From positions 66,843-130,842 of the forward strand of contig JAFYXV010000008.1 in assembly GCA_017557885.1 (NCBI GenBank): a DNA stretch of 64,000 nt, in the 5' to 3' direction. Both the position numbers and the translations under genes were made by a program. Below the pieces are notes generated by a model. That model made no database searches. It was not told the origin of the DNA and saw only the letters and a list, made by a program, of their open reading frames with translations. Shown here one piece after another: positions 5,490-59,143 of this stretch. Source of the DNA: a bacterium. GTDB taxonomy: Bacteria > Auribacterota > UBA3054. How positions within the stretch are numbered: the first letter of the stretch is position 1; each line of letters starts with the position of its first letter.

Positions 5490-5517
5490 GAAGGAGGCGT
5501 AGTTCCTTTTCCCTTGC

Positions 5518-20032: not shown

Positions 20033-20052
20033 TCAAACAGTAATAAACCTGC

Positions 20053-20905: not shown

Positions 20906-20948
20906 ATTCTCTACCTTAAAAAATAACTATAACTGATTAGGTTCAAGT

Positions 20949-21152: not shown

Positions 21153-21254
21153 TAAGCCTTCTTTGCCTTTCAGCGAAGCTCATGACGCGCGTCATTACCA
21201 AGACGAGCCGTGGGCTTCGTTTTTTTTGCCCTCTTTCCCCTTCTCAGATGATCC

Positions 21255-22331
21255 ATGAAAGTTTTTGATATCACGGCCCAGATAGCCGAGATGAAAAAGC
21301 TCGAGGACGAGCTCTCCAAAGCGGAAACAGTCGCTGATCCCGCGCTTTTCCGCAACCTGACCCGCAGGCACAAACACCTGAGCGAGGTCGTGGACACCGG
21401 AAGCCGGCTGGCGAAAGCCCAGGCGGCGGTGGCGGACTGCGAAAAGATCATCGGCGAGAATTCCGATCACGAACTTGTGGAACTGGCCAAGGAGGAAATG
21501 GCGGAAGCGCAGAAACAGTCCGAAGAGCTGGAAAAGGCCATGATGGTCCTTTTGCTTCCCAAGGACCCTTACGACGACGCCAACACCATCATGGAAATAA
21601 GGGCCGGAACCGGCGGCGAGGAAGCGGCGTTGTTCGCCTCCGAGCTTTTCAGAATGTATTCCCGCTATGCGGAAAGACAAGGCTGGAAGATCGAGACGAT
21701 GAACACCTCCCCCGCCGCGGCCGGAGGCTTGAAGGAAATCATCTTCAGCATCCAGGGCGACGCCGTATTTTCGCATATGAAGTACGAAGCCGGCGTGCAC
21801 AGAGTCCAGCGCGTGCCGGAAACCGAGACCCAGGGCAGGATCCACACTTCCGCGGCCTCGGTGGTCGTTCTGCCGGAGCAGGAGGAAGTGACCGTGGACA
21901 TCAAGCCGGAGGATCTCAGGATCGACATCTACCGCTCCACCGGCGCCGGCGGCCAGCACGTCAACACCACCGACTCCGCCATCAGGATCACGCACCTGCC
22001 CACCGGGCTGGTGGTGACCTGCCAGGACGAAAGAAGCCAGTATAAGAACAAAGCCAAAGCCATGCGCGTATTGCAGGCCAGGCTCTTGGAAAAAGAACGC
22101 CAGGAAGCCGCCAAGGAAAGGTCCGACCAGAGAAAGACCATGGTGGGCAGCGGCGACCGCAGCGACAAAAATAGGACTTACAACTTCCCCCAGAACCGCG
22201 TGACAGACCATCGCATCGGGCTGACCGTGCATGCTCTGGGCGAAATAATGAACGGCGACCTCGACCGTCTAATCTTGCCACTTATCGAGCATGACACCGA
22301 GGAAATGCTCAAAGCATGCACTTCTCTATGA
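21255..22331 (+). CDS. prfA: Peptide chain release factor 1
   Basis: GGQ motif in [28 protein letters not shown]; RF1-type recognition region [19 protein letters not shown]. Confidence 0.95.
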
Positions 22332-40197: not shown

Positions 40198-40321
40198 ATA
40201 TCTGCTCGCAAATTATTTAATTTTCAATCCGTTCAATATAATTTCCTAGTAAATTGTTTACCTTTCAATTTTTCTTTTTTTATGTTATGATATAAGCGTC
40301 AACAAAATCGAGGAGGCTTTT

Positions 40322-41644: not shown

Positions 41645-41673
41645 TTATTTTCTTTAATCATCTTTTCAAGGAG

Positions 41674-44326: not shown

Positions 44327-46105
44327 TTATTCTTCTTTATCCCATTCGCTCTTCGGGGCGTGGGTGTCGCGCTCCTTGCAGAGAGAGTTGATCAGAGTTT
44401 CAAGGGGCAGCGCGTTCGCCTGGGAGCCCTGGCGGGTCCTCAGCGAGACAGTCTTCTCGCTGGCTTCCTTGTCGCCCAGAACGAGCGTGTAGGGAACCTT
44501 GTCGAGTTTGCCCTGGCGGACCTTGGCGCCCATGGGGCGGTGAGTCTCGTCCACGGTCGCTCTAAGCCCGCGTTCCTGAAGAGCCGCGAGCACTTCCTTG
44601 GCGTAGTCGAGATGCGCGTCCTTGATGGGCACGATCCTGACCTGCTCCGGAGCGAGCCACAGGGGGAAGTTGCCGCCGCAGTTCTCCAGATAGACCGCGA
44701 AGAAGCGCTCTATGGCGCCCAAAAGCGCCCTGTGGATCATGTACGGCACATGTTCCTGCCCGTCTTCGCCGACATAGGTCATATTGAAGCGCTCAGGCAG
44801 GTTGAAGTCGAACTGGATGGTGGAGCACTGCCACTCGCGGCGCAGCATATCCTTGATCTTGATGTCGATCTTGGGGCCGTAGAAAGCGCCGCCGCCTTTG
44901 TCGATGTCGTACTTCAGGCCGAGCTTGGCCACGATCTTCTCCAGGGCGCTCTGAGCGGCGTTCCAGCGGCTCTCCTCGCCCACGCACTTGCCTTCCGGCC
45001 TGGTGGAGATATAGACGTGGTATTCGGTGAAACCGAAGTTGTGCAGCATCTGGAGGCAGAACCTGAGCGTTCTCTCCAATTCCTCTTCCATCTGATCTTC
45101 GCGGCAGAAGATGTGCGCGTCGTCCTGCGTAAATCCTCTCACTCTCAGAAGACCGTGCAAGACGCCGCTTCTTTCGAAACGATAGACCGTGCCGAGTTCC
45201 GCCATGCGCATGGGCAGATTGCGGTAAGAGCGGGTCTTGTTTTTGTAGATCAAAATATGGAAGGGGCAGTTCATGGGCTTCACGAAATATTCCTGAGTCT
45301 GGTCGTTGTCCAGGGGAACATCCATGGAGGGGAACATATTTTCGCGATAGAAGGAAAGGTGTCCGCTGGTCTCCCACAGGGTGGATTTTCCCACGTGCGG
45401 CGAATAGACCAGATCGTAGCCGTTCTTAAGATGCTCGTTGCGCCAGAAGTTTTCGATCTCGTTCCGGATGACGGCGCCGCGGGGATGCCAGACCATAAGG
45501 CCCGGGCCCAGCTCTTCGTGGAAGCTGCCGAGATCCATGTCCTTCAGAAGGACACGGTGGTCTCTTCTCTTGGCTTCCTCAAGATAATTCAGATATTCGT
45601 CAAGCTGAGCCTGTGTCGGAAAAGCCACGCCGTAAATGCGCTGAAGCATCGGGCGATGCTCATCGCCGCGCCAGTAGGCACCCGCAACGCTAAGGAGCTT
45701 AACGGCCTTCACGGGGCCAGTCGATTCAAGATGCGGTCCGCGGCAGAGGTCTAAGAATTCGCCCTGCTTGTAAACGGAAACTTCCTTAGCATCCAGATCT
45801 TCTATGATCTCGACCTTGTAGGTCTGGTCTTTTTCCTTGAAATATTCCAGGGCCTTTTCCCTGGGCCACTCTTCGCGCTCCAGCTTATAATCAGCCTCGG
45901 CGATCTTCTTCATTTCCTCTTCGATCTTGACTAAGTCTTCGGGAGAGAAAGGCGTCACGGTGTCGAAATCATAGTAAAAACCTTCCTCTATAGCCGGGCC
46001 GATGGCCAGCTTAACATCAGGATAAAGGCGCAGGACCGCCTGAGCCAGACAGTGGCTCGCGGTGTGCCAGAAAGTTTCACGATATTTCGGATCTTCGAAG
46101 TTCAT
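44327..46105 (-). CDS. thrS: Threonine--tRNA ligase (short form lacking the N-terminal TGS domain)
   Basis: Editing-domain HxxxH (FWHTASHCLAQAV), class II catalytic core and anticodon-binding domain; 592 aa. Confidence 0.95.
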   Translation of the reverse strand: MNFEDPKYRETFWHTASHCLAQAVLRLYPDVKLAIGPAIEEGFYYDFDTVTPFSPEDLVKIEEEMKKIAEADYKLEREEWPREKALEYFKEKDQTYKVEIIEDLDAKEVSVYKQGEFLDLCRGPHLESTGPVKAVKLLSVAGAYWRGDEHRPMLQRIYGVAFPTQAQLDEYLNYLEEAKRRDHRVLLKDMDLGSFHEELGPGLMVWHPRGAVIRNEIENFWRNEHLKNGYDLVYSPHVGKSTLWETSGHLSFYRENMFPSMDVPLDNDQTQEYFVKPMNCPFHILIYKNKTRSYRNLPMRMAELGTVYRFERSGVLHGLLRVRGFTQDDAHIFCREDQMEEELERTLRFCLQMLHNFGFTEYHVYISTRPEGKCVGEESRWNAAQSALEKIVAKLGLKYDIDKGGGAFYGPKIDIKIKDMLRREWQCSTIQFDFNLPERFNMTYVGEDGQEHVPYMIHRALLGAIERFFAVYLENCGGNFPLWLAPEQVRIVPIKDAHLDYAKEVLAALQERGLRATVDETHRPMGAKVRQGKLDKVPYTLVLGDKEASEKTVSLRTRQGSQANALPLETLINSLCKERDTHAPKSEWDKEE

Positions 46106-46233
46106 GTGACGACCTTTTTATAGTTGCTCGAAAGAGAGTTATATTTTTTTATGTTAGGAATAGATATTTTACGATAAGAGGCTTTCAAAGTCAATAAGCC
46201 TCTCCTCCTTGCCGGGATACCCCGCAAGCATGA

Positions 46234-46265
46234 AAAAAGGAGGGGCCTCACCGGCCCCTCCTTTC
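46234..46265 (-). terminator. Rho-independent terminator for the 46287..47609 gene
   Basis: AAAGGAGGGGCC-tcacc-GGCCCCTCCTTT 12-bp stem; minus strand followed by T6. Confidence 0.6.
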
Positions 46266-46286
46266 AAAGTTCAATTCTACGGACTG

Positions 46287-47609
46287 CTATCTACTTTGTT
46301 TAAGGATTTCAGAAATGATCTCGTTGAGATGTCCTGAGTTATTGGGCATGGCATCCCCTATTATGTAGTACCAATAATCTTTTTCTCTCTGGTCAAATGG
46401 CTTTTTATAATATTCCGCTATCTCCTCCGCCCACTTTTTCAAAATTTCCGGCTCCTTGGGATCCGTTCCCAGGAAGCGTACGGAGCACTCGGCGTTTTTC
46501 AAAGCCTTTTCCAAGCCCTCTTCGGCGGAAAGATTTCTGTCGTAAGCGTCTTTGTTCGCTTCCCACCAAGTCAGGACTTCTTTTTTTTCGACTTTATGAC
46601 CAAGCGACGCTTTGTCCATTTCCAAAAACAAAAGCGTTTCGTCGCCAGCATTCAAAGCTTCATATGAAAACGGCATAAGAAAAACTTCAAAGGAATGATA
46701 ATCTCTTGCTAAACCTTCAAGCACCGGTTCTCTCGCCCCATGCCTTTTAAATTCAGAAGTCCAGCAAGCGTACCATTCTTCCCAAAAATCTTTGGCATAA
46801 GCTCTGCCAATGAACCAGAAAAATCTTTGAGCTAAGCTGTTGCCTTGACCGCCAACGTCAAATTGTCCGTTTTGGCAATCTGTTTTCCTCCAGGCACCTG
46901 CAAAATCATGTTTGTCAAGACATGAAACCACGCCGTGCCCGCAATTAGGTTTCAAAAGATTCCAGCACCAGTTAAGATTGTTGGTGCCTCCGTTCGCTTT
47001 TTTTACAGCCTCGACGTCTTCATTAGCCAGCTTCTCCAATGCGTCATAGTTCATCTTTAAGCGGTAGGCGGGCCGCATGGTTTCCAATTCAAATGAATTG
47101 GGAGCGTTTTTTGCCATATCTTTCGCATAATCCACCAGCATGTTTTTCCATCCTTCCGCAGAAAAATTCTCAACCAGGCGGTAGCGAAGGAATTTTATGT
47201 TTTTGACAGAATTTGTTTTGTGTTCCACATTGCCAAAAAGCACAGGCAATTTGTTTCCATCAACACCTGTCAGAACTTCAAGTTTAGCTGAAGAATGCAA
47301 CAATCCGTCTCTGCTTCCCGGATCTGCAAAATCCACGTCGCAGCTAACAGTGAAGGATGCTTTTCCGGAAGGCGCTTTGACAAAAATATAAGAACCGCTG
47401 GAAACTGCTTCGGCGTCCACTATATCATGCCATTTGACGCGATAAATATAAGAATCGTCCAACCCGTCTAATACAACTTTATACTTAGTTACGGAGCCGC
47501 TCAAAACATAGCAGGGGCCTTCTATTTTGGCACCATATTTATCTGCAAAGACTGAAAAGCAAAAAAGTATAGCAAATAAAAAAAGTATCTTAGCTGTCTT
47601 ATTATCCAT
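46287..47609 (-). CDS. Secreted hypothetical protein encoded in a low-GC (about 45%) segment
   Basis: Signal peptide MDNKTAKILFLFAILFCFSVFA; Cys/Trp-rich central region (NLNWCWNLLKPNCGHGVVSCLDKHDF); no recognised domain. Confidence 0.5.
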   Translation of the reverse strand: MDNKTAKILFLFAILFCFSVFADKYGAKIEGPCYVLSGSVTKYKVVLDGLDDSYIYRVKWHDIVDAEAVSSGSYIFVKAPSGKASFTVSCDVDFADPGSRDGLLHSSAKLEVLTGVDGNKLPVLFGNVEHKTNSVKNIKFLRYRLVENFSAEGWKNMLVDYAKDMAKNAPNSFELETMRPAYRLKMNYDALEKLANEDVEAVKKANGGTNNLNWCWNLLKPNCGHGVVSCLDKHDFAGAWRKTDCQNGQFDVGGQGNSLAQRFFWFIGRAYAKDFWEEWYACWTSEFKRHGAREPVLEGLARDYHSFEVFLMPFSYEALNAGDETLLFLEMDKASLGHKVEKKEVLTWWEANKDAYDRNLSAEEGLEKALKNAECSVRFLGTDPKEPEILKKWAEEIAEYYKKPFDQREKDYWYYIIGDAMPNNSGHLNEIISEILKQSR

Positions 47610-47669
47610 AAAAACTGTCCTTCCTCACATGACGCGAAGCGTTGAGATTAGTTTATTTAATTCTACCAG

Positions 47670-47709
47670 AAAAAAAAAAAAGCAAGGCGCGCTGAAAAGC
47701 GCGCCTTGC
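47670..47709 (-). terminator. Rho-independent terminator for the giant PEP-CTERM gene
   Basis: GCAAGGCGCGC-tgaaaa-GCGCGCCTTGC hairpin; minus strand followed by T12. Confidence 0.7.
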
Positions 47710-47731
47710 TTAATTCGCTTATCGTTCGCTC

Positions 47732-50700
47732 TTATTTTCTGCGAAGAACGGCTATGCCGAGAAGAGCCAGCAGGAAGAGCGCGGCGGGTTCGGGGACCAC
47801 GGGCGTCAGCTTGACGCTCACGCTTTCCACGCAGACACTGTCGTTGGCAGTGCTGAGGAGCATCCTGAGGGCGTCCACGCCTTCCGTAGCCTTGACGGAG
47901 CCGCTGGTTATGGGCGCGTCAACAACGACAGGATCAGCGGCCCAGGTGAATTCCCTGAACTGCTTGTTGCCGGTCTTGGTGTTAAGTTTGACGGCGTAAT
48001 CGAAAGTTTCGCCGACGGCCGGTCTGGCGGTGGCCAAAGCGGTGGCCGGAGAGTAATCGTTGAAGGTGGGGACAAAAGCGTCGCCGCTTCTGGAGACTAC
48101 GACTTTCATCTGCCTGTGCTCGGAGTCCTGAGTGAGCGTCAGGTCGCCGGCAGGAGCTTTGGTGAAGAGCAGCTTGTAAGCGATCTCAAGATCGTATTTG
48201 TCAGCGATGCCTTCGCCGATGCCGAGAGCGTAGAAGAGGCCGCCTTCGCCGGCCGTGGGATTCTCGGAGGTCTTGGCGTATTCCAGAACGAGGCCGTCGG
48301 AGAAGGTCTGGCTCAAGTCTCCCCTGTCGGTCGCAATGGCTTCGACTTTCAGATCGTCGATATCGAAGGTGCCTTCGCCCCACTGGAAGAAGCGCAGAAT
48401 GGAGAAGGTCTGCGTCTCGTTCTCCTGGTCGCAGAGATATTCGCCGGATTCTTCGTTATTGCCGATCCTGACCTGTCTGAGGACGTGGCGGGCATGTCCT
48501 TCGCTGTCCGTAATAGTGTCGGCGCTGAAGACGGCGCTGAACTCGGTCCACTCGTCCTTTGCGATGGCGTTCTCGGAAACGAATTCCGGATGCGTCTCGT
48601 CGGACTTGTTGCTGGCGAATCTGTAGGATCCGTCGTCATAGCGGAACTGCGTTTCCACGCACTGCGGCGTCCAGAGGCCGAGGTTCTTGGCGGTGGTTCC
48701 GCCCAGTCTAACTTTGAAGCTGACCTTGAAGAAGCCCTTGGCTTTGCCGCTGGCCGCGACCCAGTCGTTGTCCAAAGTCTTGTCCAGCTTCTTGTGGATG
48801 CCGAAGAGGCCGGTAATATCTTTCAATCTAAGATATTTGTTGCCGTTCTCTTCTTTGACGATGGTGCTGCCGTTGACGTCGATGGCGCCGTAGGCCACGC
48901 TCCAGTTGTCCTCGCCGCAGAGATCCTTGCCGTTTTCATATTTCTCAAAGTCTTCCGTAAGCAGCGTGTCGTAAACTTCCCAATCGGCGGTGCTCTTAAT
49001 TTGGGCGTTGACGTCGGCTTCGCCCTTTATGTTCCGGTCGAAGAATCTGGGATCGCCCTTGGGGAACTCGGCGAAATTGGCGCTGTAAACTTCATAGCCT
49101 TTTTCCGGAGTGCCGTTGGGAGCGCCGACTCTGAAAGTGCCCTTGCCCGCTTCGCCGAGATCGATAGTTGCCAAAGTGGAGGCGTACTTCGCTTCCGCAG
49201 GCAGCGTCTTGGGCGTCACCTTGATGGACTGGAATCTCTGGAAGGTGCCGCTCGCAGGCTCAGCCCTGAAGAGATCTTCGTTCTCGAAGGAAACGCTGAA
49301 GTTGGCGGTGGTGCCAGGCAGTTCGTTGGTGATCGTGATCGTCCCGTATTCCTTGGAGAAGGTGATGGGGTCGTAATCGAGGGCAAGTATGGGAACGGAC
49401 TGCTTTTTCGGGGTGAGCTTGGCGTCCACCGCTCCCACGCGGGCCTGGCCGGAACTGAGGGAGAACTTGATCTTGTCAATGGCAGTTGTAGCGTCAGCGC
49501 CGGTAATAGGCAGATTCTCCTTGTAATAGGTGCCGTCCCAGTAGAGCTGCCTCAGGTTCTTCTCGGTGGTAGAGATGTCGTAGCCATAGGTGAACCATTC
49601 GCCGGCGTTGGCTGTGAAGGTGCCCTGCACGCCCTTGACGTTCGAATAAGTCAGGTTGACCTTGTTCTCGAAAAGCCTGAATTCCGTGGCAAACTGCTTG
49701 TGGAAGTCGTCCTGCCCGAAAGTCAGCGCTCCGTTGAAACCGGAGGGAAGCATCATCTGGGCGGCCACGGTGATGTCGTACTTCTTGGCCATGGCTTCCG
49801 TAAATCCCAGTTTGATTTCGACCGAACGCCCGTTATCGTTGCCTAAGAAGAGATCCATGGGATCCTCGTCCGGGAAGTCCAGGGTGTCGTAATCGGTCTC
49901 GGAAACGATGGTCTCGACTTTCAGATTGTCAAGGCAGAAGGTGCCGCTGCCCCAGAGGAAGAAGCGCAAGGTGTTGAAGAAGTCACTGTTGCTGCTCTGA
50001 TCGAGGAAAGCTTTGCAATTTTCAACCTTGTCGCCAACCTTGTACTGGCGCAGGATGTGGCGGTAGTTGTCCCCGGAAGCATCCGACACGGGCTTCGCCT
50101 CTATGATCATGCTGACTCTCGTCCAGCTGGCCTGGGAAATGTAATTCTGGGAAACGAACTCCGTATGGTTGGCGTCGCTGGCGTTGCTGCGGAAGCGGTA
50201 GCCGCTGCCGTTGACATACTCGAAGTTGCCCTCCACCATCTGGGGATCCCAGAGTCCGAAGAACTTGCTGGAAGTGCCGGTCAGCATGGCGTCGAAGCTG
50301 ATGCGGAAGTAGCCTTTGGCGTGGCCTTCCCACCAGTTGGGCTTCATCTGGACGTCCAGCTTTTTGTGGGCGCCGAAGAGATTGTTGACGTAGGCGATCT
50401 CGCAATATCTGTTGCCGAATCTTTCCCTGACGTAGATCGATCCGTCCCTGTCGATGGTGCCGTAGCCGCTTCCCCAGCCGCCGACGCCGCCAAGGTTGGT
50501 GTTGCCGGGATAATCTTCGAAGTCTTCGTCAAGCAAGACTTCCGTAACGTAGTGGTCGAAAGCGTAGTCAAGGTTGCCGCCGTTTTCCCAGAGGCAGTCG
50601 TAATCGCCGGGATTGCCTTTCGGGAACGTGGAGAGATCGGCGGAGTAGAGGCCGTAGCCGTCAGTTTCGTTGCCGCAGGGCGCGCCGAGGCGCACTCTCT

Positions 50701-52825
50701 TCGTGCCGGCGTAACCGGCTTCCACTTCCACCACGCATTCCAGGAACTGGGGAGTGGTGGGAAGATCGAAAGCTTCCACCTGGATCGTGGCGTCGCTCTT
50801 GAAAAGGCCTTCCACCGGGGAGATCGTGAAGTGATCGGCGCCTTTTACGATCTTGGCTTTATATTTGATGGTGGTGTTCTCGTGGCAGTTCGTCAGAGCG
50901 ATGGCGGTAAGGGTGGAGCCTATTTCCATCGGCTTGGCGGAAAGCTTAAGTTCGCCGATGCCGCAGTCCACATGGATGTCGTCGAAGTCGGCACCGCCCG
51001 AGCTGACGTCCTTGAGCCAGACAGAGCTGATGTAAACGTCGTCGGAGCCCGCGACGTAGCATTCGGTCGCGCTGTGGTACTCGTTATTGACGGACCAGCC
51101 AATGAACTCCTTGCTGTTTTCGTCAATAAAGAAGGTCCAGGTCTGCCAGCCGGTACTGATCTGCTGCAGAGTGGTGGATTTGTTGACGCTGCCGCCGGGA
51201 GTGGAAGAGCAGGCCAGGCTCAGCTTTCCGTCGCTGGTGACGTAAGCGTAGCAGAGAGCGTCCTTGGCGCCCCTGATGTCGAAGTAGGTGCCGCCGAAAG
51301 TCGGCTTGACCTTTACGCTGACCTTGTAGGTGCCGTATCCGTTGTCGGACTTGACGTTGACGGGAACCTGGAAGCCGTTGCCGCCCTGGCTGTGAAGGTA
51401 ATAGTTGCCGTTCTGTTCCTTGATCTGGCCGGTGGCGCTAAGATTGATTATGCCCTGTTGCCAGGTGGCGTCGCCCAGATAGAAGTCTTCGTCCGCTTCA
51501 AATCCGCAGTTGAATTCGGAAAGCACGGGAGGCGTGCGGTACAGAGAGGCGTACTTCCTGATCTTCTGCCAGACGGTGGCGCATCTGGTCTTGCTGTTGT
51601 AATAGACCGCGGAGCCGCCGTACTGGAGAAATTGTTCGGAGAAATAAGGCACCCTGTAGCCGTAGTAGGTGCCGTTCCAGCTGCCGTGGTAGGTCATGAT
51701 GGAAAGGCATCTCTGGGTAAGGTTGGTGGCGTAGAAGTAGCAGCCCAGGCTGTGTCCGAAAAGACCGCCGTCCGACGGTCCGGGGCTGCTCGACTGTTCG
51801 GCGGAGTGGTTGCAGCCCATGTTGTGGCCCCACTCGTGGACCCAGGAAAGATCTTCCAGATAGCTGTAGAGCACGATGTGGAAACCGCAGCCTTCCGCGC
51901 CGGTGGGGCTGCCGTGGACATAGCCTAAACCGGCCCAGCCGGAAGTCATGTATCTCGGGGCGTAGCAGACGAAGTCGGCGCCCAGCTTGTCCCTCAAGGC
52001 GGGCACGAACTCGAAGCCTTCCTTGCCCTGCTGCATGCGGGAAAGGTCAGTGCTCGAGTCCTTCGTTTCCTCGTAGTCGCAAAGGTAAGTGCCGACGCAG
52101 GTCAGCTTCGCTTTTATAAGGCTGTTCTGCATGGCCTGGTTGCAGACCGCGATGCCGGCGGCCACCTTCGTGTTGGCGGCTTCCAGACTGCCGGCGGACT
52201 CGATGGATTGGTTGGAGAAGAGGACAATGATGGTCAGCTCCACCACTTCGTCGTCGTCCCAGTTGGCGGCCCAGGCGGACTGCTCGGGAGTAAGGTCAGC
52301 GGCGGGAACGCCGAAGCTGGAAATAGAGTTCTGTTCCTCCCAGACGGGCGCTTCGTGATCCTCCGGATTGGACATCTGGGCGCAGCGCTCGCTGTAAGAA
52401 CATTCCTTAACTTCGTAAACGCCTTTCTGCTTGGTGCCGCTGATCTCGTAGCGGGCGTCGGCCGTAAGGTCTTCCACAACGCCGAAAAGCACGTTGGGGC
52501 CGGCCGCGATGCGCCACTGGCCGGCGAAATTGTCCAGATTACCGGCCCGGCAGACGATGCCGTTCACGTCTTTGACAGCGTAAGTGACGTCGCCCTTCAG
52601 TTCGCCCTGGGGCGTCAGGAAAGTCACCCTGTCGCCTATTTTAAGCTCGGCTAGGGCGAACATAGCGTTCTCGACCTTCGGCTCAGGCGCACTGGGGTAC
52701 GTCGAGAAAATTTGGGCTGTCTGAGCCCCGCTGGGGTCAAGAGTAAGGCAGAAATCCGCGGCGAAGGACGTCGCGGCAAAGATGACCGCGATAACGGCGG
52801 CCAGGATCTGGTAGTGCTTGCGCAT
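47732..52825 (-). CDS. Giant (1697 aa) PEP-CTERM-anchored secreted protein with N-terminal metzincin-type zinc metalloprotease domain and internally duplicated beta-rich domains
   Basis: Signal peptide MRKHYQILAAVIAVIFAATSFA; HEWGHNMGCNH (HExxHxxGxxH); two homologous roughly 200-aa modules (LLDEDFEDYPGNTNLGG...DNLKVE and LLTEDFEKYENGKDLCG...DDLKVE); C-terminal VPEPAALFLLALLGIAVLRRK. Confidence 0.75.
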   Translation of the reverse strand: MRKHYQILAAVIAVIFAATSFAADFCLTLDPSGAQTAQIFSTYPSAPEPKVENAMFALAELKIGDRVTFLTPQGELKGDVTYAVKDVNGIVCRAGNLDNFAGQWRIAAGPNVLFGVVEDLTADARYEISGTKQKGVYEVKECSYSERCAQMSNPEDHEAPVWEEQNSISSFGVPAADLTPEQSAWAANWDDDEVVELTIIVLFSNQSIESAGSLEAANTKVAAGIAVCNQAMQNSLIKAKLTCVGTYLCDYEETKDSSTDLSRMQQGKEGFEFVPALRDKLGADFVCYAPRYMTSGWAGLGYVHGSPTGAEGCGFHIVLYSYLEDLSWVHEWGHNMGCNHSAEQSSSPGPSDGGLFGHSLGCYFYATNLTQRCLSIMTYHGSWNGTYYGYRVPYFSEQFLQYGGSAVYYNSKTRCATVWQKIRKYASLYRTPPVLSEFNCGFEADEDFYLGDATWQQGIINLSATGQIKEQNGNYYLHSQGGNGFQVPVNVKSDNGYGTYKVSVKVKPTFGGTYFDIRGAKDALCYAYVTSDGKLSLACSSTPGGSVNKSTTLQQISTGWQTWTFFIDENSKEFIGWSVNNEYHSATECYVAGSDDVYISSVWLKDVSSGGADFDDIHVDCGIGELKLSAKPMEIGSTLTAIALTNCHENTTIKYKAKIVKGADHFTISPVEGLFKSDATIQVEAFDLPTTPQFLECVVEVEAGYAGTKRVRLGAPCGNETDGYGLYSADLSTFPKGNPGDYDCLWENGGNLDYAFDHYVTEVLLDEDFEDYPGNTNLGGVGGWGSGYGTIDRDGSIYVRERFGNRYCEIAYVNNLFGAHKKLDVQMKPNWWEGHAKGYFRISFDAMLTGTSSKFFGLWDPQMVEGNFEYVNGSGYRFRSNASDANHTEFVSQNYISQASWTRVSMIIEAKPVSDASGDNYRHILRQYKVGDKVENCKAFLDQSSNSDFFNTLRFFLWGSGTFCLDNLKVETIVSETDYDTLDFPDEDPMDLFLGNDNGRSVEIKLGFTEAMAKKYDITVAAQMMLPSGFNGALTFGQDDFHKQFATEFRLFENKVNLTYSNVKGVQGTFTANAGEWFTYGYDISTTEKNLRQLYWDGTYYKENLPITGADATTAIDKIKFSLSSGQARVGAVDAKLTPKKQSVPILALDYDPITFSKEYGTITITNELPGTTANFSVSFENEDLFRAEPASGTFQRFQSIKVTPKTLPAEAKYASTLATIDLGEAGKGTFRVGAPNGTPEKGYEVYSANFAEFPKGDPRFFDRNIKGEADVNAQIKSTADWEVYDTLLTEDFEKYENGKDLCGEDNWSVAYGAIDVNGSTIVKEENGNKYLRLKDITGLFGIHKKLDKTLDNDWVAASGKAKGFFKVSFKVRLGGTTAKNLGLWTPQCVETQFRYDDGSYRFASNKSDETHPEFVSENAIAKDEWTEFSAVFSADTITDSEGHARHVLRQVRIGNNEESGEYLCDQENETQTFSILRFFQWGEGTFDIDDLKVEAIATDRGDLSQTFSDGLVLEYAKTSENPTAGEGGLFYALGIGEGIADKYDLEIAYKLLFTKAPAGDLTLTQDSEHRQMKVVVSRSGDAFVPTFNDYSPATALATARPAVGETFDYAVKLNTKTGNKQFREFTWAADPVVVDAPITSGSVKATEGVDALRMLLSTANDSVCVESVSVKLTPVVPEPAALFLLALLGIAVLRRK

Positions 52826-52992
52826 AAAAAAACCTCCTAGGGATTATTTCATTCATTTTATCAAATTTTGGGCTTCCGGCAAATTTTGAGCCCTCCGCAC
52901 CTTGTTTCATTTTCCCTTTTTGGATAAAATAGAAAGATACTGAAATAAAATTGATAATTATGCTCACATTCATCCCACAAAGGAGAATAGTC

Positions 52993-54441
52993 ATGAAACT
53001 GCACAAATATCTCCCGGCTCTGCTCGCTGGCCTTATGTCCGTCGGCCTTTTGGCTGACGTCCTCATCAGCGAATTCACCTATGACGCCAAGAAGCCCTTT
53101 AAGAGCGACGACTGGGTGGAGATCTGCAACTACGGCGACGGCGCCGTCGATATCTCCGGCTGGAAGCTCGGCGACGACAAATACGACGAGGGCGGAACGC
53201 TGTTCACTATCCCGGAAGGCACCACTCTTGCCGCCGGCGAATGCGTAGTCCTCTATTCCGACGCGGCTTTCACCAGCATCTACCCTGACGTTGAGAATAT
53301 CCTCGGCCCCACCGGCATCGGCTTTGGCAAAAACAGCGACGACGTGGTCTTAATTGACAAGACCGGCAAAGTTCAGCACAAGATCGAATATTCCACCATC
53401 TCTGACGGCGGCGAATGGCCGGACGGCTCCGCTTATTCCAACGTGCTCGTCTATCCCTACGCCGACTACAACAACACCTGGCAGACCTGGAACGTCAGCA
53501 ACTCCGAAGGCGGCTCCCCCGGCACGAAGAATCCCGAGACCTGCGGACTCTATGTCGGCAAGCACAGCCGCAACCCCAACGCCCCCACTTCCGTCACTTC
53601 CCCCGAGATCCACATCTGGGCCTATGACAACAGCAGGAACGACAAGGCCGTAAAGAGCGCCAAGATCTTCTACTCCACTTCCGAAAGCGGCGAATACACT
53701 TCCAAGAGCATGACTTTGCTGGAAGGCAACGAATGGGTCTGCAACCTTCCCGCCATGGAAGAAGGCACCACTGTCTTCTATTATGCGCTTGTTGAAGATT
53801 ACAGCGGCAACACTCTGAGAAAATACTGGAACGCCTACAGGGCCCCCTACATGTACGTCGTCACCAACGAGCCCGTCTATTCCGGCGTCGTCATCAACGA
53901 GATCATGTACCAGTGCCTCGACATAGCCTACACCAACACGAAGGGCAACTGCAAGAACTACGAATACGTGGAGCTCTTCAACCGCACCGACGAAGACATA
54001 GACGTCAGCTACTGGCGTTTTGAGACCAGCGACGACAAGTACCGTCTGCCCAAGGACACCATCCTGGGCGCCAGGGAATTCCTGCTCATCACCGACCGCC
54101 AGGCCGCCATTGAGACCGTTTACTCTCTGCCTGTGGGCGCCGCCATCTACGAATTCGACTTCGGCCTTTCCAACACCGGCGACACTATCTCTTTGCAGAA
54201 CGCCAACGGTCAGGAAGTGGACGTTGTCACTTTCAAATCCACCGCCCCCTGGCCCACCGGCTGCGCCGGACTTGGCCCCTCTCTGGAATTGAGCGATCCC
54301 AACGCCGACAACACCCAGCCCAACGCCTGGGCCGCGTCGATCGCGATCTACGGAACTCCCTGCGAGACCAACAGCGTGCCGGAACCGGCTTTCGCCCTGA
54401 TGGCTCTGCTGGCTTTTGCCGGAGCCTTCCTCAGAAGGTAG
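52993..54441 (+). CDS. PEP-CTERM-anchored protein with two lamin-tail-domain (LTD)-like modules
   Basis: ATG at 52993 preceded by AGGAGA (track ORF TTG 52951); signal peptide MKLHKYLPALLAGLMSVGLLA; LTD-like LISEF...DDWVEICNYGDGAVDISGWKLGDD and VVINEIMYQ...YEYVELFNRTDEDIDVSYWRF; C-terminal VPEPAFALMALLAFAGAFLRR. Confidence 0.65.
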   Translation: MKLHKYLPALLAGLMSVGLLADVLISEFTYDAKKPFKSDDWVEICNYGDGAVDISGWKLGDDKYDEGGTLFTIPEGTTLAAGECVVLYSDAAFTSIYPDVENILGPTGIGFGKNSDDVVLIDKTGKVQHKIEYSTISDGGEWPDGSAYSNVLVYPYADYNNTWQTWNVSNSEGGSPGTKNPETCGLYVGKHSRNPNAPTSVTSPEIHIWAYDNSRNDKAVKSAKIFYSTSESGEYTSKSMTLLEGNEWVCNLPAMEEGTTVFYYALVEDYSGNTLRKYWNAYRAPYMYVVTNEPVYSGVVINEIMYQCLDIAYTNTKGNCKNYEYVELFNRTDEDIDVSYWRFETSDDKYRLPKDTILGAREFLLITDRQAAIETVYSLPVGAAIYEFDFGLSNTGDTISLQNANGQEVDVVTFKSTAPWPTGCAGLGPSLELSDPNADNTQPNAWAASIAIYGTPCETNSVPEPAFALMALLAFAGAFLRR

Positions 54442-54456
54442 ATCGAGAGTCGCGAA

Positions 54457-55551
54457 GTGTGGCTTTGGCTTAGATATTTCCTCATCATCGCCCTTTCCGG
54501 CGTCGTGTTGTATTTCGTTTTGCAGACCGACGTCGCCGCTTTGAAGTGTCCTTTTGAACTGGAAGCTTCCGAGCAGTGGACCATCCAGCAGGAAAGGCCC
54601 GGGGACTTTATAGCCAAGCACCTCAAGGGCCGCATGCAGGCCCTGGCGGGCGTTACGACCTTCCGCTTCGACCGCTACGACGTGGTCAACACGGAACTGG
54701 CGCCCGGCATCAAAGAAGGGTCCCTGGTCAAAGTTGGCGACCATGTCCTGACCTTCCACTCCCTCTACGACGAATCGCAGAAGAAGATGCTCCAGGCCAA
54801 GGTCGATATGTACCAGGCAACGCTGGACAATCTCCTCTCCGGCGAATTGCAGGAGCGCGTCACGGAAGGCGAAAAGCTCGTCTCCCTGGCCTACACGAAT
54901 TACTACAGCTATCTTCCCTTGGTGGAGCGCCGCCGGGAACTTTACAACACCGGCTACATCTCCAACGACGAAGTCCAGCAGGCGGAGGAAGAACTGAACA
55001 GCCGCTTCGCGGAGATCAGCGTGGCGGAGGCCGATCTGAACGCCCGCAAAATGGCCTGCTCCTCCAACGTCATCAACACGGCCAGGGCGGAGCTGCGCGT
55101 CGCTCAGAAAGAGCTTGAAATGGTCAACGACCGCCTGGAAGCCAGAACGGTTACGACTCCCGTAAACGGCCGCGTTACCCAGGTCTCCCTTGACCCGGAA
55201 ATCAAGACCATCCTAAGAGTTGTCAACGAGGATCCCATTTACGCCCGCGTAGTGGCCCCGCTGAATTTCTCCAACGAGATCCAGCCCGGCCTTGAAGCTG
55301 TCCTGTCCTTCCACAACGAAGACCTGACCGTCACCGGCAAAGTGGAATCCGTTTCCATCGTTCCGGTCCCCTTGATGGGTCTTTCCGTCGTGCACGCTCT
55401 TATTCCCATAAGGGACGTCCCCTTCTCCGCCATCTCCTCCATGACCGGCGAAGCCATCATCCCCTCCATCAAGATAGACCCTTACCACTCCTCTCTTGCG
55501 GCTCTGCGCTCTCTCTATCAGAAATTCAACAACTCCCTTCGCAAGGAGTGA
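54457..55551 (+). CDS. HlyD-family membrane fusion protein / periplasmic adaptor-like protein
   Basis: GTG start 15 nt after the upstream stop; N-terminal TM helix, coiled-coil region (QAEEELNSRFAEISVAEADLNARK...AELRVAQKELEMVNDRLEA) and beta-barrel motif TVTTPVNGRVTQVSLDP. Confidence 0.6.
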   Translation: MWLWLRYFLIIALSGVVLYFVLQTDVAALKCPFELEASEQWTIQQERPGDFIAKHLKGRMQALAGVTTFRFDRYDVVNTELAPGIKEGSLVKVGDHVLTFHSLYDESQKKMLQAKVDMYQATLDNLLSGELQERVTEGEKLVSLAYTNYYSYLPLVERRRELYNTGYISNDEVQQAEEELNSRFAEISVAEADLNARKMACSSNVINTARAELRVAQKELEMVNDRLEARTVTTPVNGRVTQVSLDPEIKTILRVVNEDPIYARVVAPLNFSNEIQPGLEAVLSFHNEDLTVTGKVESVSIVPVPLMGLSVVHALIPIRDVPFSAISSMTGEAIIPSIKIDPYHSSLAALRSLYQKFNNSLRKE

Positions 55552-55554
55552 AAA

Positions 55555-56298
55555 ATGGCGAATTTCCACGGCCGCTACGAGCTGAAGTATTTTCTTCCCT
55601 ATGACCTTATAGACAAGGCCATAGCGTACGCCTCGCCTTACGTCCAGCCAGACCAGCACGCCAAGCCCAACGGCCTGGGCGTTCCCGGCTACACCATCCG
55701 CTCCGTTTATTTTGACGACGACAACCTGACGCTTTACAAAGAAAAACTCATAGGCTTGAAAGACCGCAGAAAATTCCGCGTCAGGGGCTACGCCAACGTC
55801 ACGCCCGACAACAACGTTTTCCTGGAAATAAAATACCGCTCCCGTCAGCAGGTCGGCAAGGACCGCGCGCCCATGAAATTAAGCGAACTTCAGGAGATCA
55901 TGGACCGCAGCAAGACTCTCGACGAAGTAGAGTTTCCCACCGACTACCTGAGGGCCAACGCCCACCGCTTCCTGCACAACTGCTTCGTCAAAGGGTATCG
56001 TCCCATGACCACCGTCATCTACGACCGCAACCCCTTCATCGGAAAAGACGACGGCGAAGTCAGGTTCACCATCGACACGAACCTCAGGGCCGTGGATCAC
56101 TCCTATTCCTACACGCTTTTCGAACCCTACGAGGAAGAGCAGATCGCGCTTCCCGGAGCCATATTGGAACTGAAATTCGACCGCCTCATGCCGGAATGGA
56201 TGCGGCGCTTTTTAACCAAATTCGAGATCACCCAGACTTCCATATCCAAATACGCGCACTGCATAGAAAAAGTAATATTGCGCGAGGAGGAAAGTTAA
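55555..56298 (+). CDS. VTC-domain protein (CYTH-like, polyphosphate-polymerase-domain family)
   Basis: N-terminal RYELKYFLPYD...RSVYFDDDNL...RRKFRVRGYANVTPDNNVFLEIKYRSRQ pattern typical of bacterial VTC domain proteins; 3-nt gap from the upstream gene. Confidence 0.6.
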   Translation: MANFHGRYELKYFLPYDLIDKAIAYASPYVQPDQHAKPNGLGVPGYTIRSVYFDDDNLTLYKEKLIGLKDRRKFRVRGYANVTPDNNVFLEIKYRSRQQVGKDRAPMKLSELQEIMDRSKTLDEVEFPTDYLRANAHRFLHNCFVKGYRPMTTVIYDRNPFIGKDDGEVRFTIDTNLRAVDHSYSYTLFEPYEEEQIALPGAILELKFDRLMPEWMRRFLTKFEITQTSISKYAHCIEKVILREEES

Positions 56299-56301
56299 TT
56301 T

Positions 56302-57027
56302 ATGAATCAGACTGCCGAATATGAAATGATGCAGTGGACGCTGAACGCCCTGGCGCCGACCACCTGGATAGACGTGGTCAACAACTTCGCCGTGGCCGCG
56401 CTCTTCGCGTTCCTCTTGGTTTTGCTCTACCGCTTCTGCCGCGGCGTGCACGGCAACAAGACCTTCATGCAAACGCTGGTCATGATGGAGATCATCATAA
56501 CGCTTGTGATGATGGTCATCCTGAATGTCCGCGGCTCCTCCGCCGTGGCCGTGGCTTTCGGGTTGATGGGCGCCATGAGCGTTGTCCGCTTCCGCACCAT
56601 CATAAAGGATAACCGCGACACTGCCTTCGTCTTCATGGCCGTGGCCCTGGGCATGGCCGCCGGCACCGGCCAGCACAGGATCGGCGCCATCGGCTTCGTC
56701 ATCATCTGGCTCTCCTTCGTCTTCACGGAATACACTCCCTGGAGCCTCCGCCACAGAGAGATCATCGCCAAGATCATCTTCAGCACCGAAAATTCCGAGA
56801 GCAAGCTTGATTCTGGCGCTGAGATCATGGGCCGCATGAAGCAATTGGGCACCTCCATAAAAATGCTGCACTCCCGCACCATAAAATCCGGCACCGCCAT
56901 CGAGGCCACCTACTCCTTCCGTCTGAGATTCAGAGTCAGCGAGGAATACGCCACCGCCCAGCTGATGGGCTTAAAGTGCGTGGAATCCGTCAGCCTCTTC
57001 TCACCTTCAGAAGTCGAGGAGCCCTGA
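56302..57027 (+). CDS. DUF4956-like membrane protein (usual partner of bacterial VTC-domain proteins)
   Basis: Multi-TM; GLMGAMSVVRFRTIIKDNRDTAFVFMAVALGMAAGTG resembles the DUF4956 core. Confidence 0.55.
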   Translation: MNQTAEYEMMQWTLNALAPTTWIDVVNNFAVAALFAFLLVLLYRFCRGVHGNKTFMQTLVMMEIIITLVMMVILNVRGSSAVAVAFGLMGAMSVVRFRTIIKDNRDTAFVFMAVALGMAAGTGQHRIGAIGFVIIWLSFVFTEYTPWSLRHREIIAKIIFSTENSESKLDSGAEIMGRMKQLGTSIKMLHSRTIKSGTAIEATYSFRLRFRVSEEYATAQLMGLKCVESVSLFSPSEVEEP

Positions 57028-57028
57028 C

Positions 57029-57334
57029 ATGAACGCTTACCGCAAAGCCGCGGACGCGCTGGCGGTTGTGGTCCTTCTCTGGGCTATCGCCATGCTCATA
57101 GCCTTCGCTCCCAGGTTCGCCAACTTCACCTCATTGCATGAGGAAGCAGTAGCGGCTTTCCAGAACGCCCCCACCCTCACAAACGAACTCAAGGCCAACG
57201 TTATCAAGCTCTGGAACGCCGAGGCCGCCAGCAACGGCCTTCTCGTCATCAGCTGGACCGGCTTCGCCGCCGCCGAGCTTATCCAGGTAATCCTCGCCTT
57301 CATCGCCCGCCGCAAGGAAAAGCAGAATGCCTGA
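57029..57334 (+). CDS. Small membrane protein of unknown function (101 aa, two predicted TM helices)
   Basis: ATG 1 nt after the upstream stop; hydrophobic segments ALAVVVLLWAIAMLIAF and LLVISWTGFAAAELIQVILAFIA. Confidence 0.45.
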   Translation: MNAYRKAADALAVVVLLWAIAMLIAFAPRFANFTSLHEEAVAAFQNAPTLTNELKANVIKLWNAEAASNGLLVISWTGFAAAELIQVILAFIARRKEKQNA

Positions 57335-58466
57335 CCGCGAACCAAACTCTTACGAAGAGATAATCGCCGCCGCGCCCCATGGCAGCAAAAAATATTGGAC
57401 CGAGATCCCTGACGATTACCAGAGCATGGTTTTAAGCTCCCTGCGGGCCCGTATAGCGGGCTGCAACCTGGGAGCCATAGTGGAAGGCTGGTCTCTCATA
57501 AAGATGGAAAATTACGCCAAGGAGATCGGCGTCCCCTACCCTATGACCGACTACTGGCCCTCCTCCCCGGACCCGGAGGAACCGCGCTACATCCTCGGCA
57601 GGAACCGCCAGTACACCAAGGGCGAGATGAGATATTCTCCCGTGGACGACGACACCACCTACACCATTCTGGGTCTCCTAATAGCGGAAGAAGCGAAGAA
57701 TTTCCCATTCGCTCTCGACGACGTGGCAAATGCCTGGCTCAAATATCTGCCCATGGCCTGCACCGCCGAGAAAGTGACCTTGGACAATCTCAAAGCCGGC
57801 GTCGCTCCAGAAAAAGCCGCTGAGATAAACAATCCTTACGACGAATGGATCGGCGCGGACATCCGCTGCGACGGCTTCGCCTACATGGCACCAGGCAACC
57901 CGAGATTAGCCGCCAAATTAGCCTACACAGACGCTTATCTGAGCCACCGCAAAAACGGCATCTACGGGGAAATGTATTTTGCGGCCGTCATCAGTTCCGC
58001 CTTCGCCCTGAAAGATACCAAAGCCGCCCTGGAAGCGGGACTGTTTGAGATCCCGGAAAACTGCGACCTGGCGGCAGCGGTTAAATGGGCCCTCTCCCTT
58101 TACGGCAAAATAAAAGACTACAGAGAAGCCGCGAAACTAGTCGATGAGCGCTTCCCGAATATGTCTCCCGTCCACACCATCAACAACGCCTGCCTGACCA
58201 TATTCGCCCTGGGCCTCGGGCATGAAACGAAGTCCATAGACACCGTCATCTCGCAGTGCGTCGCCATGGCCCACGACTGCGACTGCACCGCCGCCACCGC
58301 CGGCTCGATCGCAGGCGCGGCCTGGGGAAACGCCACGCTCTCAGATCACTGGTATGAACCTTTCAACGACATCCAGGAAAGCTACCTCATAGGCCGCCGC
58401 GTCTTCGGCATCGAGGACCTCTCCTTCCGCTTCGCCGCCCAGGCCAAGCGCCATAAAAAACTTTAA
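57327..58466 (+). CDS. ADP-ribosylglycohydrolase (ARH/DraG) family protein
   Basis: C-terminal MAHDCDCTAATAGSIAGAAWG matches the ARH D-x-D-x-T...AG..GA motif; overlaps the upstream gene by 8 nt. Confidence 0.65.
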   Translation: MPDREPNSYEEIIAAAPHGSKKYWTEIPDDYQSMVLSSLRARIAGCNLGAIVEGWSLIKMENYAKEIGVPYPMTDYWPSSPDPEEPRYILGRNRQYTKGEMRYSPVDDDTTYTILGLLIAEEAKNFPFALDDVANAWLKYLPMACTAEKVTLDNLKAGVAPEKAAEINNPYDEWIGADIRCDGFAYMAPGNPRLAAKLAYTDAYLSHRKNGIYGEMYFAAVISSAFALKDTKAALEAGLFEIPENCDLAAAVKWALSLYGKIKDYREAAKLVDERFPNMSPVHTINNACLTIFALGLGHETKSIDTVISQCVAMAHDCDCTAATAGSIAGAAWGNATLSDHWYEPFNDIQESYLIGRRVFGIEDLSFRFAAQAKRHKKL

Positions 58467-58483
58467 TTTTCTATAAAAAAAAG

Positions 58484-58525
58484 ACAACAAAAAAAGAGTC
58501 GTGCAAACGACTCTTTTTTTGTTGT
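58484..58525. terminator. Bidirectional rho-independent terminator (A-run / hairpin / T-run palindrome)
   Basis: ACAACAAAAAAAGAGTCG-tgcaaa-CGACTCTTTTTTTGTTGT between the + strand operon end (58466) and the minus-strand tRNA-Gly. Confidence 0.7.
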
Positions 58526-58532
58526 ATCCTGC

Positions 58533-58608
58533 TGGAGCGGGCGACCGGACTCGAACCGGCAACCAACAGCTTGGAAGGCTGTGACTCTGCCAATTGAGTT
58601 ACACCCGC
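58533..58608 (-). tRNA. tRNA-Gly (anticodon TCC)
   Basis: Minus-strand GCGGGTG acceptor stem, anticodon loop CTTCCAA, T-loop TTCGAGT, encoded CCA; 76 nt. Confidence 0.85.
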
Positions 58609-58642
58609 AAAAGCAGATATGATAGCCCGAAGGGCGATCTCT

Positions 58643-59143
58643 TTAACGCTTCGAGAACTGGAAGCGGGCGCGGGCGCCGCGCTGGCCGTATTTCTTGCGC
58701 TCTTTCTCGCGGGCGTCCCTGGTCAGAAGACCGTTGGACTTCACGAGAGCCTTGGTCGCGTCATCGATGAGAGCAAGGGCTCTGGCGATGCCGTGACGGA
58801 TGGCGCCGGCCTGTCCGGAGATGCCGCCGCCGGCTACGGTGGCGACCACATCGAACTTGCCGATGATCTTGGCGGCTTCGAAAGCTTCCTGGACCAGCTG
58901 CCTGGTGGTGTCCACGGGGAAGTAATCCTCAAAGGCGCGGCCGTTGACGGTAATGGTTCCATTGCCGGGTTTCAGGACCACGCGGGCGCTGGATCTTTTG
59001 CGGCGGCCGGTGGCGGAGTAACTTTCGGTGAAGACACGGGTGTCCTCAACGGGAGCGGCCTGGACCTCAGGAGTGGTTTCGACTTCGGGAACCTCGACGG
59101 TTTCCGGGGTGACGTTGCTGTTTTCGCTCATATTATCACTCAT
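58643..59143 (-). CDS. rpsI: 30S ribosomal protein S9 with acidic N-terminal extension
   Basis: ...YSATGRRKRSSARVVLKPGNGTITVNGRAFEDYFP...KKYGQRGARARFQFSKR. Confidence 0.95.
   Translation of the reverse strand: MSDNMSENSNVTPETVEVPEVETTPEVQAAPVEDTRVFTESYSATGRRKRSSARVVLKPGNGTITVNGRAFEDYFPVDTTRQLVQEAFEAAKIIGKFDVVATVAGGGISGQAGAIRHGIARALALIDDATKALVKSNGLLTRDAREKERKKYGQRGARARFQFSKR

Follow-up and report, generated by a model that had tools for sequence, protein, structure and literature searches.

In a 64,000-nucleotide stretch of DNA from a rumen metagenome-assembled genome (MAG), hereafter the window, a soluble protein with a VTC domain and an inner-membrane protein with a DUF4956 domain are encoded side by side (positions 55555–57027, + strand). 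The original prediction treated these two genes as a polyphosphate (polyP) synthesis and translocation pair. This two-gene unit was drawn too small, since the conserved cassette adds a lamin-tail-domain (LTD) surface protein and a HlyD-like adaptor, encoded immediately ahead of the pair. The VTC protein is predicted to share the fold and the active site of the catalytic domain of yeast Vtc4, and from the identity of the active-site residues we consider it probable that it polymerises polyP from ATP or another nucleoside triphosphate (NTP). We further hypothesize that the enzyme makes polyP while docked on the DUF4956 protein at the inner membrane, and that the polymer is exported via the adaptor to the surface, a complete chain to which we would give slightly less than an even chance.

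The VTC protein and its predicted active site

The VTC gene (55555–56298, + strand, ATG start) encodes a putative polyP polymerase of 247 amino acids, a soluble, stand-alone Vtc4-type tunnel protein, whose N-terminus reads MANFHGRYELKYFL with the RYELKYFL motif at residues 7–14. Reading of the open reading frames (ORFs) bore out the position, strand and 3-nt spacing previously given for the two genes, and searches with hidden Markov models (HMMs) confirmed both family assignments, i.e., a VTC-like protein and a DUF4956-like partner with several membrane helices, the latter being supported by hydropathy and structure prediction. Both matches exceed the Pfam cut-offs: PF09359 matches the VTC protein with E 2.1e-41 and 142.5 bits over profile positions 2–234 of 235 (cut-off 23 bits), and PF16316 matches its partner with E 1.1e-15 and 58.2 bits (cut-off 30.6 bits). 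The VTC domain covers the 247 amino acids end to end with no second Pfam match, leaving no SPX domain; no transmembrane segment was found in the protein either, and C-terminal helices of the DUF202 type are thus absent. The same stand-alone architecture is seen in every one of the 150 best VTC homologues, which are 217–324 amino acids long. In agreement with the earlier description of these pairs as widespread, clustering at 50% identity leaves 15,895 representatives of the VTC family with E <= 1e-3, and 9,362 with E <= 1e-10. The "VTC domain" of Vms1 was set aside, as it is an unrelated treble-clef domain that shares only the name.

The relationship to Vtc4 is detectable from the single sequence, which matched yeast Vtc4 (3g3q) among PDB sequences with E 3e-6, and from a profile of 23 VTC homologues, which aligned residues 5–243 to the Vtc4 catalytic domain with E 2e-18. 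An AlphaFold2 (AF2) model of the protein, with a mean predicted local distance difference test score (pLDDT) of 92.7 and a predicted template-modelling score (pTM) of 0.89, had the Vtc4 catalytic domain 3g3r as its top fold match in the PDB (template-modelling (TM) score 0.80, E 1.8e-15; Foldseek), followed by Vtc3 and then Vtc2, with generic triphosphate tunnel metalloenzymes (TTMs) at TM scores of 0.41–0.51. According to this model the protein is a closed beta-barrel triphosphate tunnel with the helical decorations of Vtc4, and the possibility, raised earlier, that structure prediction would show no tunnel fold did not materialize.

Residues were mapped to Vtc4 by profile alignment to the natively numbered chain 8i6v_E. 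Residues R7, K11, R75, R77, E91, K93 and K102 of the window protein correspond to R196, K200, R264, R266, E279, K281 and K294 of Vtc4, respectively, and Y156, R158, R170, E205, K207, S231 and K232 correspond to Y359, R361, R373, E426, K428, S457 and K458. In the cryo-EM structure of the yeast VTC complex, the triphosphate is held by K200, R264, R266, K281, R361, K458, S457 and Y359, while E426 is a ligand of Mn2+; cellular polyP falls when any one of the eight residues that bind triphosphate is mutated, and K458 is the sole position that differs in the non-catalytic Vtc2/3, where it is I or L (bioRxiv 10.1101/2023.01.27.525886). The window protein carries all nine, i.e., the eight triphosphate residues and the equivalent of E426, with K232 in the place of the diagnostic K458. 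Each of the nine is found in 262–266 of 268 bacterial-type homologues, the rest being gaps except for one substitution at S231; K232 is present in 266, the rest again being gaps.

The bacterial proteins also have three invariant tunnel-facing residues of their own, E9, R71 and K73, where Vtc4 has T198, A260 and A262. The first of these (261 of 268 homologues) gives strand 1 the form R-x-E-x-K, as opposed to R-x-T-x-K in Vtc4, and keeps one glutamate of the ExExK metal site. E9 is what is left of the ExExK metal motif that typifies hydrolytic TTMs, and the chemistry may differ from that of Vtc4, which weighs against a polymerase. This half-retained motif is the chief ground on which we keep open an alternative in which the VTC protein performs another TTM reaction, as a tripolyphosphatase or polyphosphatase, an NTP triphosphatase or a cyclase, and is brought to the membrane by DUF4956, where it might, for instance, act on phosphate polymers that are imported or detected at the cell envelope. 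Most of the TTM superfamily is hydrolytic, TTM hydrolases are the secondary structural matches of the VTC model, and phosphatases recur near related loci (a purple-acid-phosphatase-like enzyme near 23 of them and an alkaline phosphatase near locus L082, both described below). However, the fold similarity to Vtc4 (TM score 0.80) far exceeds that to any hydrolytic TTM (<= 0.51), every polymerisation residue of Vtc4 is present, including the equivalent of K458, and the basic R71 and K73 would suit a long polyanion in the tunnel. We regard such a hydrolase or cyclase as quite unlikely, and polymerisation of polyP remains the activity that we would expect of this enzyme.

The DUF4956 partner and its linkage to VTC genes

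The three nucleotides between the VTC and DUF4956 genes are TTT (56299–56301), and a GAGGAGG ribosome-binding site for DUF4956 sits within the final VTC codons. Conservation of this arrangement was followed over 85 loci, comprising 80 genome loci, taken from one genome per species, and five metagenome contigs; neighbours were counted by ORF clustering and then HMM searches. Because a single peptide pattern derived from the VTC alignment selected the genome loci and Paenibacillus dominates among them, the counts given below are not a census, and some MAG contigs may carry incorrect taxon labels. The labels among the 80 loci include unclassified rumen bacteria, a Chlamydiota MAG, Blastocatellia, Gemmatimonadales, Krumholzibacteriota, Planctomycetota, Paenibacillus, Lachnospiraceae and other Firmicutes, so that the pair spans at least eight phylum-level labels, and the close relatives of the window locus include the label 'UBP3_UBA3054'.

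For 78 of the 80 genome loci, the DUF4956 HMM matched a same-strand gene directly downstream of the VTC gene; one of the two exceptions is at a contig edge, and the other carries its DUF4956 gene within the operon but 4 kb upstream. Over all 85 loci, DUF4956 lies near VTC in 84 and directly downstream on the same strand in 83, which answers the earlier concern that the two might not be conserved as neighbours. In called genes, the junctions measure −8, −8, −4, +1, +3 and +96 nt, the last in locus L084. Of three distant DUF4956 genes that were sampled in turn, two are immediately preceded by a VTC gene.

It might still be argued that VTC and DUF4956 are mere neighbours or annotation artefacts. 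In locus L088, for instance, DUF4956 (1456–2142) has no VTC gene beside it and adjoins a response regulator, after which about 3.4 kb (2306–5740) hold no ORF of at least 120 amino acids, and no VTC-DUF4956 fusion was found among the best 120 and the best 150 homologues. We attach next to no probability to this explanation, since retention of DUF4956 near VTC in 84 of 85 loci, among distant phyla, within unrelated flanks and with coupled starts and stops, is synteny far beyond chance, and since the invariant motifs held by both proteins imply selection on both.

The DUF4956 gene (56302–57027, + strand, ATG start) encodes 241 amino acids, and PF16316 matches in all 27 of its homologues too. Hydropathy and the AF2 model (pLDDT 75.8) give the protein four to five membrane helices, modelled at residues 22–47, 53–99, 104–122 and 125–144. 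This helical domain (approximately residues 22–145) is MgtC/YhiD-like, and it is followed at residues 153–233 by a beta-alpha-beta-beta-alpha-beta arrangement that resembles an ACT domain. An invariant motif, S93-x2-R96-F97-R98-T99-x3-D103-x2-D106-T107-A108, lies between two short hydrophobic stretches. The N-terminal 24 residues contain no lysine or arginine, the loop at 44–57 contains three and the loop at 95–108 contains four; by the positive-inside rule, these counts fit a topology with the N-terminus outside and the C-terminus inside. The basic loop and the ACT-like domain would then both face the cytoplasm, the side on which the protein would encounter a soluble partner or an arriving polyanion.

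DUF4956 has no sequence relative in the PDB, and its nearest relatives appear to be MgtC and YhiD. The Pfam MgtC model (PF02308) matches the window protein with 13.2 bits, below the cut-off of 31.4, and 26 of the 27 homologues likewise have sub-threshold matches, the best with E 3.7e-4. Aligned with E. coli YhiD by hhalign, DUF4956 gave 190 columns over both domains (probability 88.7%, E 2.5e-6), and the profile alignment has the pattern G..G....R ... TA...A..GM..G.G in common. On these comparisons, DUF4956 is best described as a remote, superfamily-level relative of MgtC/YhiD, outside the MgtC family proper. With MgtC/SapB/YhiD it has in common an N-terminal domain of about five helices and a C-terminal ACT-like domain, whereas the RFRT-x3-D-x2-DT loop is its own, as is the obligatory pairing with VTC, which is not reported for MgtC/YhiD.

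The four-gene cassette and a possible route to the surface

Upstream of the VTC gene, the window encodes a putative, divergent periplasmic adaptor of the HlyD/membrane-fusion type (54457–55551, + strand), and upstream of that a secreted or surface LTD protein (52993–54441, + strand). The order LTD, adaptor, VTC, DUF4956 is kept on independent metagenome contigs at 72%, 49% and 46% VTC identity, where the flanks are entirely different; the conserved unit is these four genes and is larger than the pair. Overall, an adaptor gene stands immediately upstream of VTC in 26 of the 85 loci, preceded by an LTD-only protein in 17 of the 26 and by a CotH-LTD fusion of about 1,000 amino acids in three. The form with an adaptor and a surface protein is that of one large clade. 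A CotH kinase is encoded within 4.5 kb of the pair in 58 of the 85 loci, 55 of them without an adaptor and mainly in Firmicutes, but also in Planctomycetota.

The LTD and CotH forms are linked by the fusion in locus L015, in which CotH occupies residues 104–417 and LTD begins at 613, and the LTD-only protein fills the slot that CotH or CotH-LTD holds in other lineages. It does not appear to be a degenerate CotH, a possibility that was discarded because only its LTD domains align with the L015 fusion, and no CotH was found in the 64-kb window with an HMM built from 40 neighbouring CotH genes. In loci that have neither LTD nor CotH, the gene ahead of the adaptor encodes a Cthe_2159 beta-helix or a PLD-like protein of secreted type. 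The conserved third partner, whether LTD, CotH-LTD, CotH, Cthe_2159 or PLD-like, always bears a signal or an anchor. At the pair loci, the CotH domains have a signal or an anchor before them and a C-terminal anchor after them, and therefore face outwards.

The LTD protein of the window has two lamin-tail domains (Pfam matches in two stretches, E 2e-34), a signal-like N-terminal helix and a VPEP...RR tail resembling a sorting signal, which scored 7.8 bits and remained below the PEP-CTERM cut-off of 16. The program-called ORF begins with TTG at 52951, and the likely start is the ATG at 52993. The adaptor has 364 amino acids, with a transmembrane anchor at residues 3–21, a long coiled coil and barrel domains. 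A profile of 10 adaptor homologues matched ZneB (3e-8), MacA (2e-7) and EmrA (7e-7) in the PDB, with matches to such structures extending to E 1e-6; Pfam HlyD_3 was found in five and HlyD_D23 in four of the 10 homologues, while the window protein matches neither.

Taken together, we propose the following mechanism. Based on its fold and active-site identity, the VTC protein would be a soluble, metal-dependent polymerase that, as in Vtc4, uses the gamma-phosphate of ATP or another NTP to extend polyP through a basic tunnel. It would be docked on the cytoplasmic face of DUF4956, an oligomerising MgtC-like protein, because the two genes are obligatorily adjacent and translationally coupled, and the growing chain would be received by the basic RFRT..K..R loop and the ACT-like domain of DUF4956. 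From there, to judge from gene context, the chain might cross the inner membrane and then the adaptor towards the surface, where the LTD protein would bind polyP or where, in other lineages, secreted CotH kinase would use it. No ABC, RND or MFS transporter gene was found in the operon here, in loci L009–L022 or in loci L082–L086, and since no other transporter gene is present in the cassette, DUF4956 is the only candidate inner-membrane partner of the adaptor. The membrane crossing itself is suggested by the lone adaptor, the extracytoplasmic third partners, the outward CotH domains and the recurrent extracytoplasmic phosphoesterases nearby, and on this gene context we consider export of polyP plausible.

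Divergent from VTC and just upstream of it, 23 Paenibacillus loci (among L023–L079; e.g., L058 6479–7732, − strand) encode a membrane-anchored purple-acid-phosphatase-like enzyme with Pur_ac_phosph_N and Metallophos domains, which from its domains and position could belong to the module and hydrolyse phosphoesters or polyP outside the cytoplasm. Two relatives also have genes of phosphate metabolism or transport at a distance of less than 7 kb from the cassette, namely an alkaline phosphatase in L082 (11821–13440, − strand) and a Na/Pi-cotransporter-PhoU fusion in L084 (1–1942, − strand), which hint at a link to phosphate economy, although they may be there by coincidence.

Several observations speak against the export part of this proposal, or against the proposal as a whole. 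The identity of the adaptor depends on family scores below threshold, its HlyD, EmrA and RND-MFP NCBIfam matches (E 8e-11 to 3e-8) all being far below the cut-offs, with no Pfam match, so that the protein should be regarded as a putative adaptor. No outer-membrane factor is encoded near the cassette. The DUF4956 model is weakest precisely at the invariant basic loop (pLDDT 55–68), few charged residues are found in its transmembrane helices, and no credible membrane-fold match for it was found in the PDB, the membrane parts of 7ytj and 8i6v included. Neither DUF4956 nor the 101-amino-acid protein encoded after it has a Pfam match to DUF202, and DUF4956 is unrelated to the DUF202-type channel helices of Vtc1/3/4. 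Its nearest relatives, MgtC and YhiD, are a family without demonstrated channel function, and according to a citation in PMC12345266, MgtC of Salmonella is described as a regulator that binds ATP synthase and PhoR. Further, deletion of the VTC gene in Streptococcus intermedius had no visible effect on aggregation (PMC12345266), and no activity assay of any bacterial VTC protein was found in the literature searched. The coupled synthesis and export machine of the original prediction fared differently in its two halves: synthesis is supported by the Vtc4 profile match, the tunnel model and the conserved residues, whereas translocation was proposed by analogy with yeast, and the analogy does not extend to DUF4956, which is not a homologue of the DUF202-type helices.

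In the main alternative to export, DUF4956 might serve as an anchor or an allosteric regulator of the polymerase, with its ACT-like domain sensing a small ligand, and polyP might stay at the cytoplasmic face as a local store of phosphate or energy, or as a signal tied to the secretion of surface proteins. A regulatory role for DUF4956 agrees with what is known of MgtC. However, synthesis without export leaves unexplained why a lone adaptor is fixed upstream in 26 loci and why the third partner is always extracytoplasmic. PPK enzymes make cytoplasmic polyP in bacteria, and a second, membrane-tethered synthase would need a reason for its existence. We consider synthesis without export unlikely, though it deserves serious attention, and continue with export via DUF4956 and the adaptor as our working hypothesis.

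Export would also bear on the function of the third partners. Outside the cell, secreted CotH kinases have no ATP. In the fullest version of our hypothesis, VTC-DUF4956 would be a third type of bacterial polyP synthase beside PPK1 and PPK2, hard-wired to a hitherto unrecognised MgtC-like translocon and, in mostly diderm carriers, an adaptor, and would secrete polyP to the surface. CotH kinases would use the polymer there as phosphoryl donor or substrate, or else, being anionic, it would cross-link or bind LTD proteins and cationic exopolysaccharides, Pel among them. This elaborate scenario is speculative, and we think it doubtful in its entirety.

Genes for a GGDEF diguanylate cyclase (L072 5585–7336, + strand), for a Cthe_2159-type beta-helix carbohydrate-binding protein (L020 4898–6820, + strand) and, ahead of the adaptor gene in L021 and L022, for a small protein of the PLD-like type also recur beside the pair. 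These neighbours fit an extracellular-matrix context like the published association with pel.

The operon and its surroundings in the window

In the window, the cassette is part of an operon of six genes on the + strand, in which successive genes are separated by 15, 3, 3 and 1 nt and the last two overlap by 8 nt. It is bounded by an AT-rich divergent intergenic region (52826–52992), which contains hexamers resembling promoter elements and, just before the LTD gene, an AAGGAG ribosome-binding site, and by a perfect palindromic hairpin of 19 bp flanked by runs of A and T (58484–58525). One promoter-like site is at 52930–58 (+ strand) and another is on the − strand, both being consensus matches only. 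The hairpin is likely a bidirectional terminator that probably ends both the operon and the convergent tRNA-Gly(TCC) gene (58533–58608, − strand); apart from this tRNA, no riboswitch or other leader RNA was found in 52000–59000.

The last two genes of the operon follow the cassette. The first (57029–57334, + strand), starting 1 nt past the DUF4956 stop and translationally coupled to that gene, encodes a small protein of 101 amino acids with two hydrophobic segments and no family match. The second (57327–58466, + strand) overlaps it by 8 nt, encodes an ADP-ribosylglycohydrolase-family protein (PF03747, E 9e-35) and is probably co-transcribed with the cassette. The small protein is kept down to 72% VTC identity and no further, and the ADP-ribosylglycohydrolase is found only in relatives with at least 95% identity (L001–L008) and is absent in L082–L086. 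Given this lineage-specific distribution, both were set aside as members of the system.

Divergent from the cassette, a gene at 47732–52825 (− strand) encodes a protein of 1,697 amino acids with a reprolysin-like metallopeptidase domain (PF13688), the tail of which passes the PEP-CTERM threshold (TIGR02595, 23.6 bits with a cut-off of 16). A reprolysin-like gene of 480 amino acids adjoins the cassette in the Krumholzibacteriota locus L022 (9510–10949), and a gene of 1,704 amino acids occupies the same place in L082; this may be a recurrent neighbour of the cassette. Farther away, two adjacent sodium:neurotransmitter symporter (SNF) genes lie at 37100–40197 (+ strand), their called ORFs overlapping by about 80 nt. 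Patches of lower G+C content (0.455–0.476, compared with about 0.56 elsewhere) were noted at 20001–22000, 40001–42000 and 46001–48000. The ORF at 40322–41644 has only a weak match to DUF2157, and that at 46287–47609 has no Pfam match.

Relation to known systems and meaning

Compared with the yeast VTC complex (3g3q/3g3r, 7ytj, 8i6v), the window system is alike in the family of its catalytic domain, in the predicted tunnel fold and in the residues for triphosphate and Mn. In both, the synthase is linked to a partner in the membrane; the link is physical in yeast and genetic in the window. By contrast, the window system has neither the SPX domain, a sensor of inositol pyrophosphate, nor the DUF202-type helices and Vtc1; its enzyme is a separate polypeptide with the additional E9, R71 and K73, its partner is MgtC-like with an ACT-like domain, and a periplasmic adaptor is added. 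The topology would run from the cytoplasm to the periplasm or surface, rather than from the cytosol to the vacuole.

The pair itself has been encountered before. In NELoc-2 of Clostridium perfringens, a membrane protein of 222–226 amino acids, annotated as tubulin/FtsZ GTPase, is encoded after each of the VTC-domain genes, with CotH nearby (PMC2879425), and the accessory genes of Gram-positive pel loci were listed as 'cotH, poly-phosphate polymerase, DUF4956, DUF4832' (PMC7112168). The window pair is of the same family as SIR_1593/SIR_1592 of S. intermedius, for which the authors saw a Vtc4-like model and an architecture of MgtC-like transmembrane and ACT domains (PMC12345266). In that organism, deletion of the DUF4956 or the CotH gene altered Pel levels and aggregation, and the authors assumed that polyP is cytoplasmic (PMC12345266). 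The window locus agrees with these CotH-VTC-DUF4956 loci (PMC7112168; PMC12345266; PMC2879425) in the order and strand of the pair and in having a secreted third partner, but it has no CotH and no pel genes, its third partner is LTD-only and an adaptor is inserted before VTC.

A transmembrane-anchored adaptor with a coiled-coil hairpin and barrel domains, placed beside a presumed inner-membrane partner, is also seen in MacAB-TolC, EmrAB-TolC and HlyBD-TolC. Unlike these tripartite systems, the cassette has no ABC, RND or MFS transporter and no outer-membrane factor, its adaptor scores below curated thresholds, and the cargo that it is presumed to carry would be an inorganic polymer synthesized in place. 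In line with the original prediction, which held that the pair is uncharacterised biochemically, no biochemical paper on it was found in the literature searched; nor did that literature yield a biochemical study of DUF4956, a localisation of polyP for bacterial VTC or a description of the four-gene form with adaptor and LTD protein. VTC-DUF4956 is thus a known but biochemically uncharacterised pair, and the four-gene locus is a new form of it that adds a genetic argument for export.

Reviews class VTC as the eukaryote-type and PPK as the prokaryote-type polyP polymerase (PMC12526157, PMC10657179). If the VTC protein polymerises polyP, an unstudied branch of bacterial polyP metabolism would be present in the genomes of gut, rumen and soil bacteria and of pathogens, including C. 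perfringens NELoc-2 and the streptococcal pel loci. If the polymer is also exported, the origin of extracellular polyP, the phosphoryl donor of CotH kinases and the role of an MgtC-family membrane domain would become testable; the MgtC superfamily would gain a transport function, and bacteria would have a dedicated secretion system for an inorganic polymer. The four-gene form provides a genetic argument for such an envelope-spanning route and, at the same time, a compact set of genes for its reconstitution.

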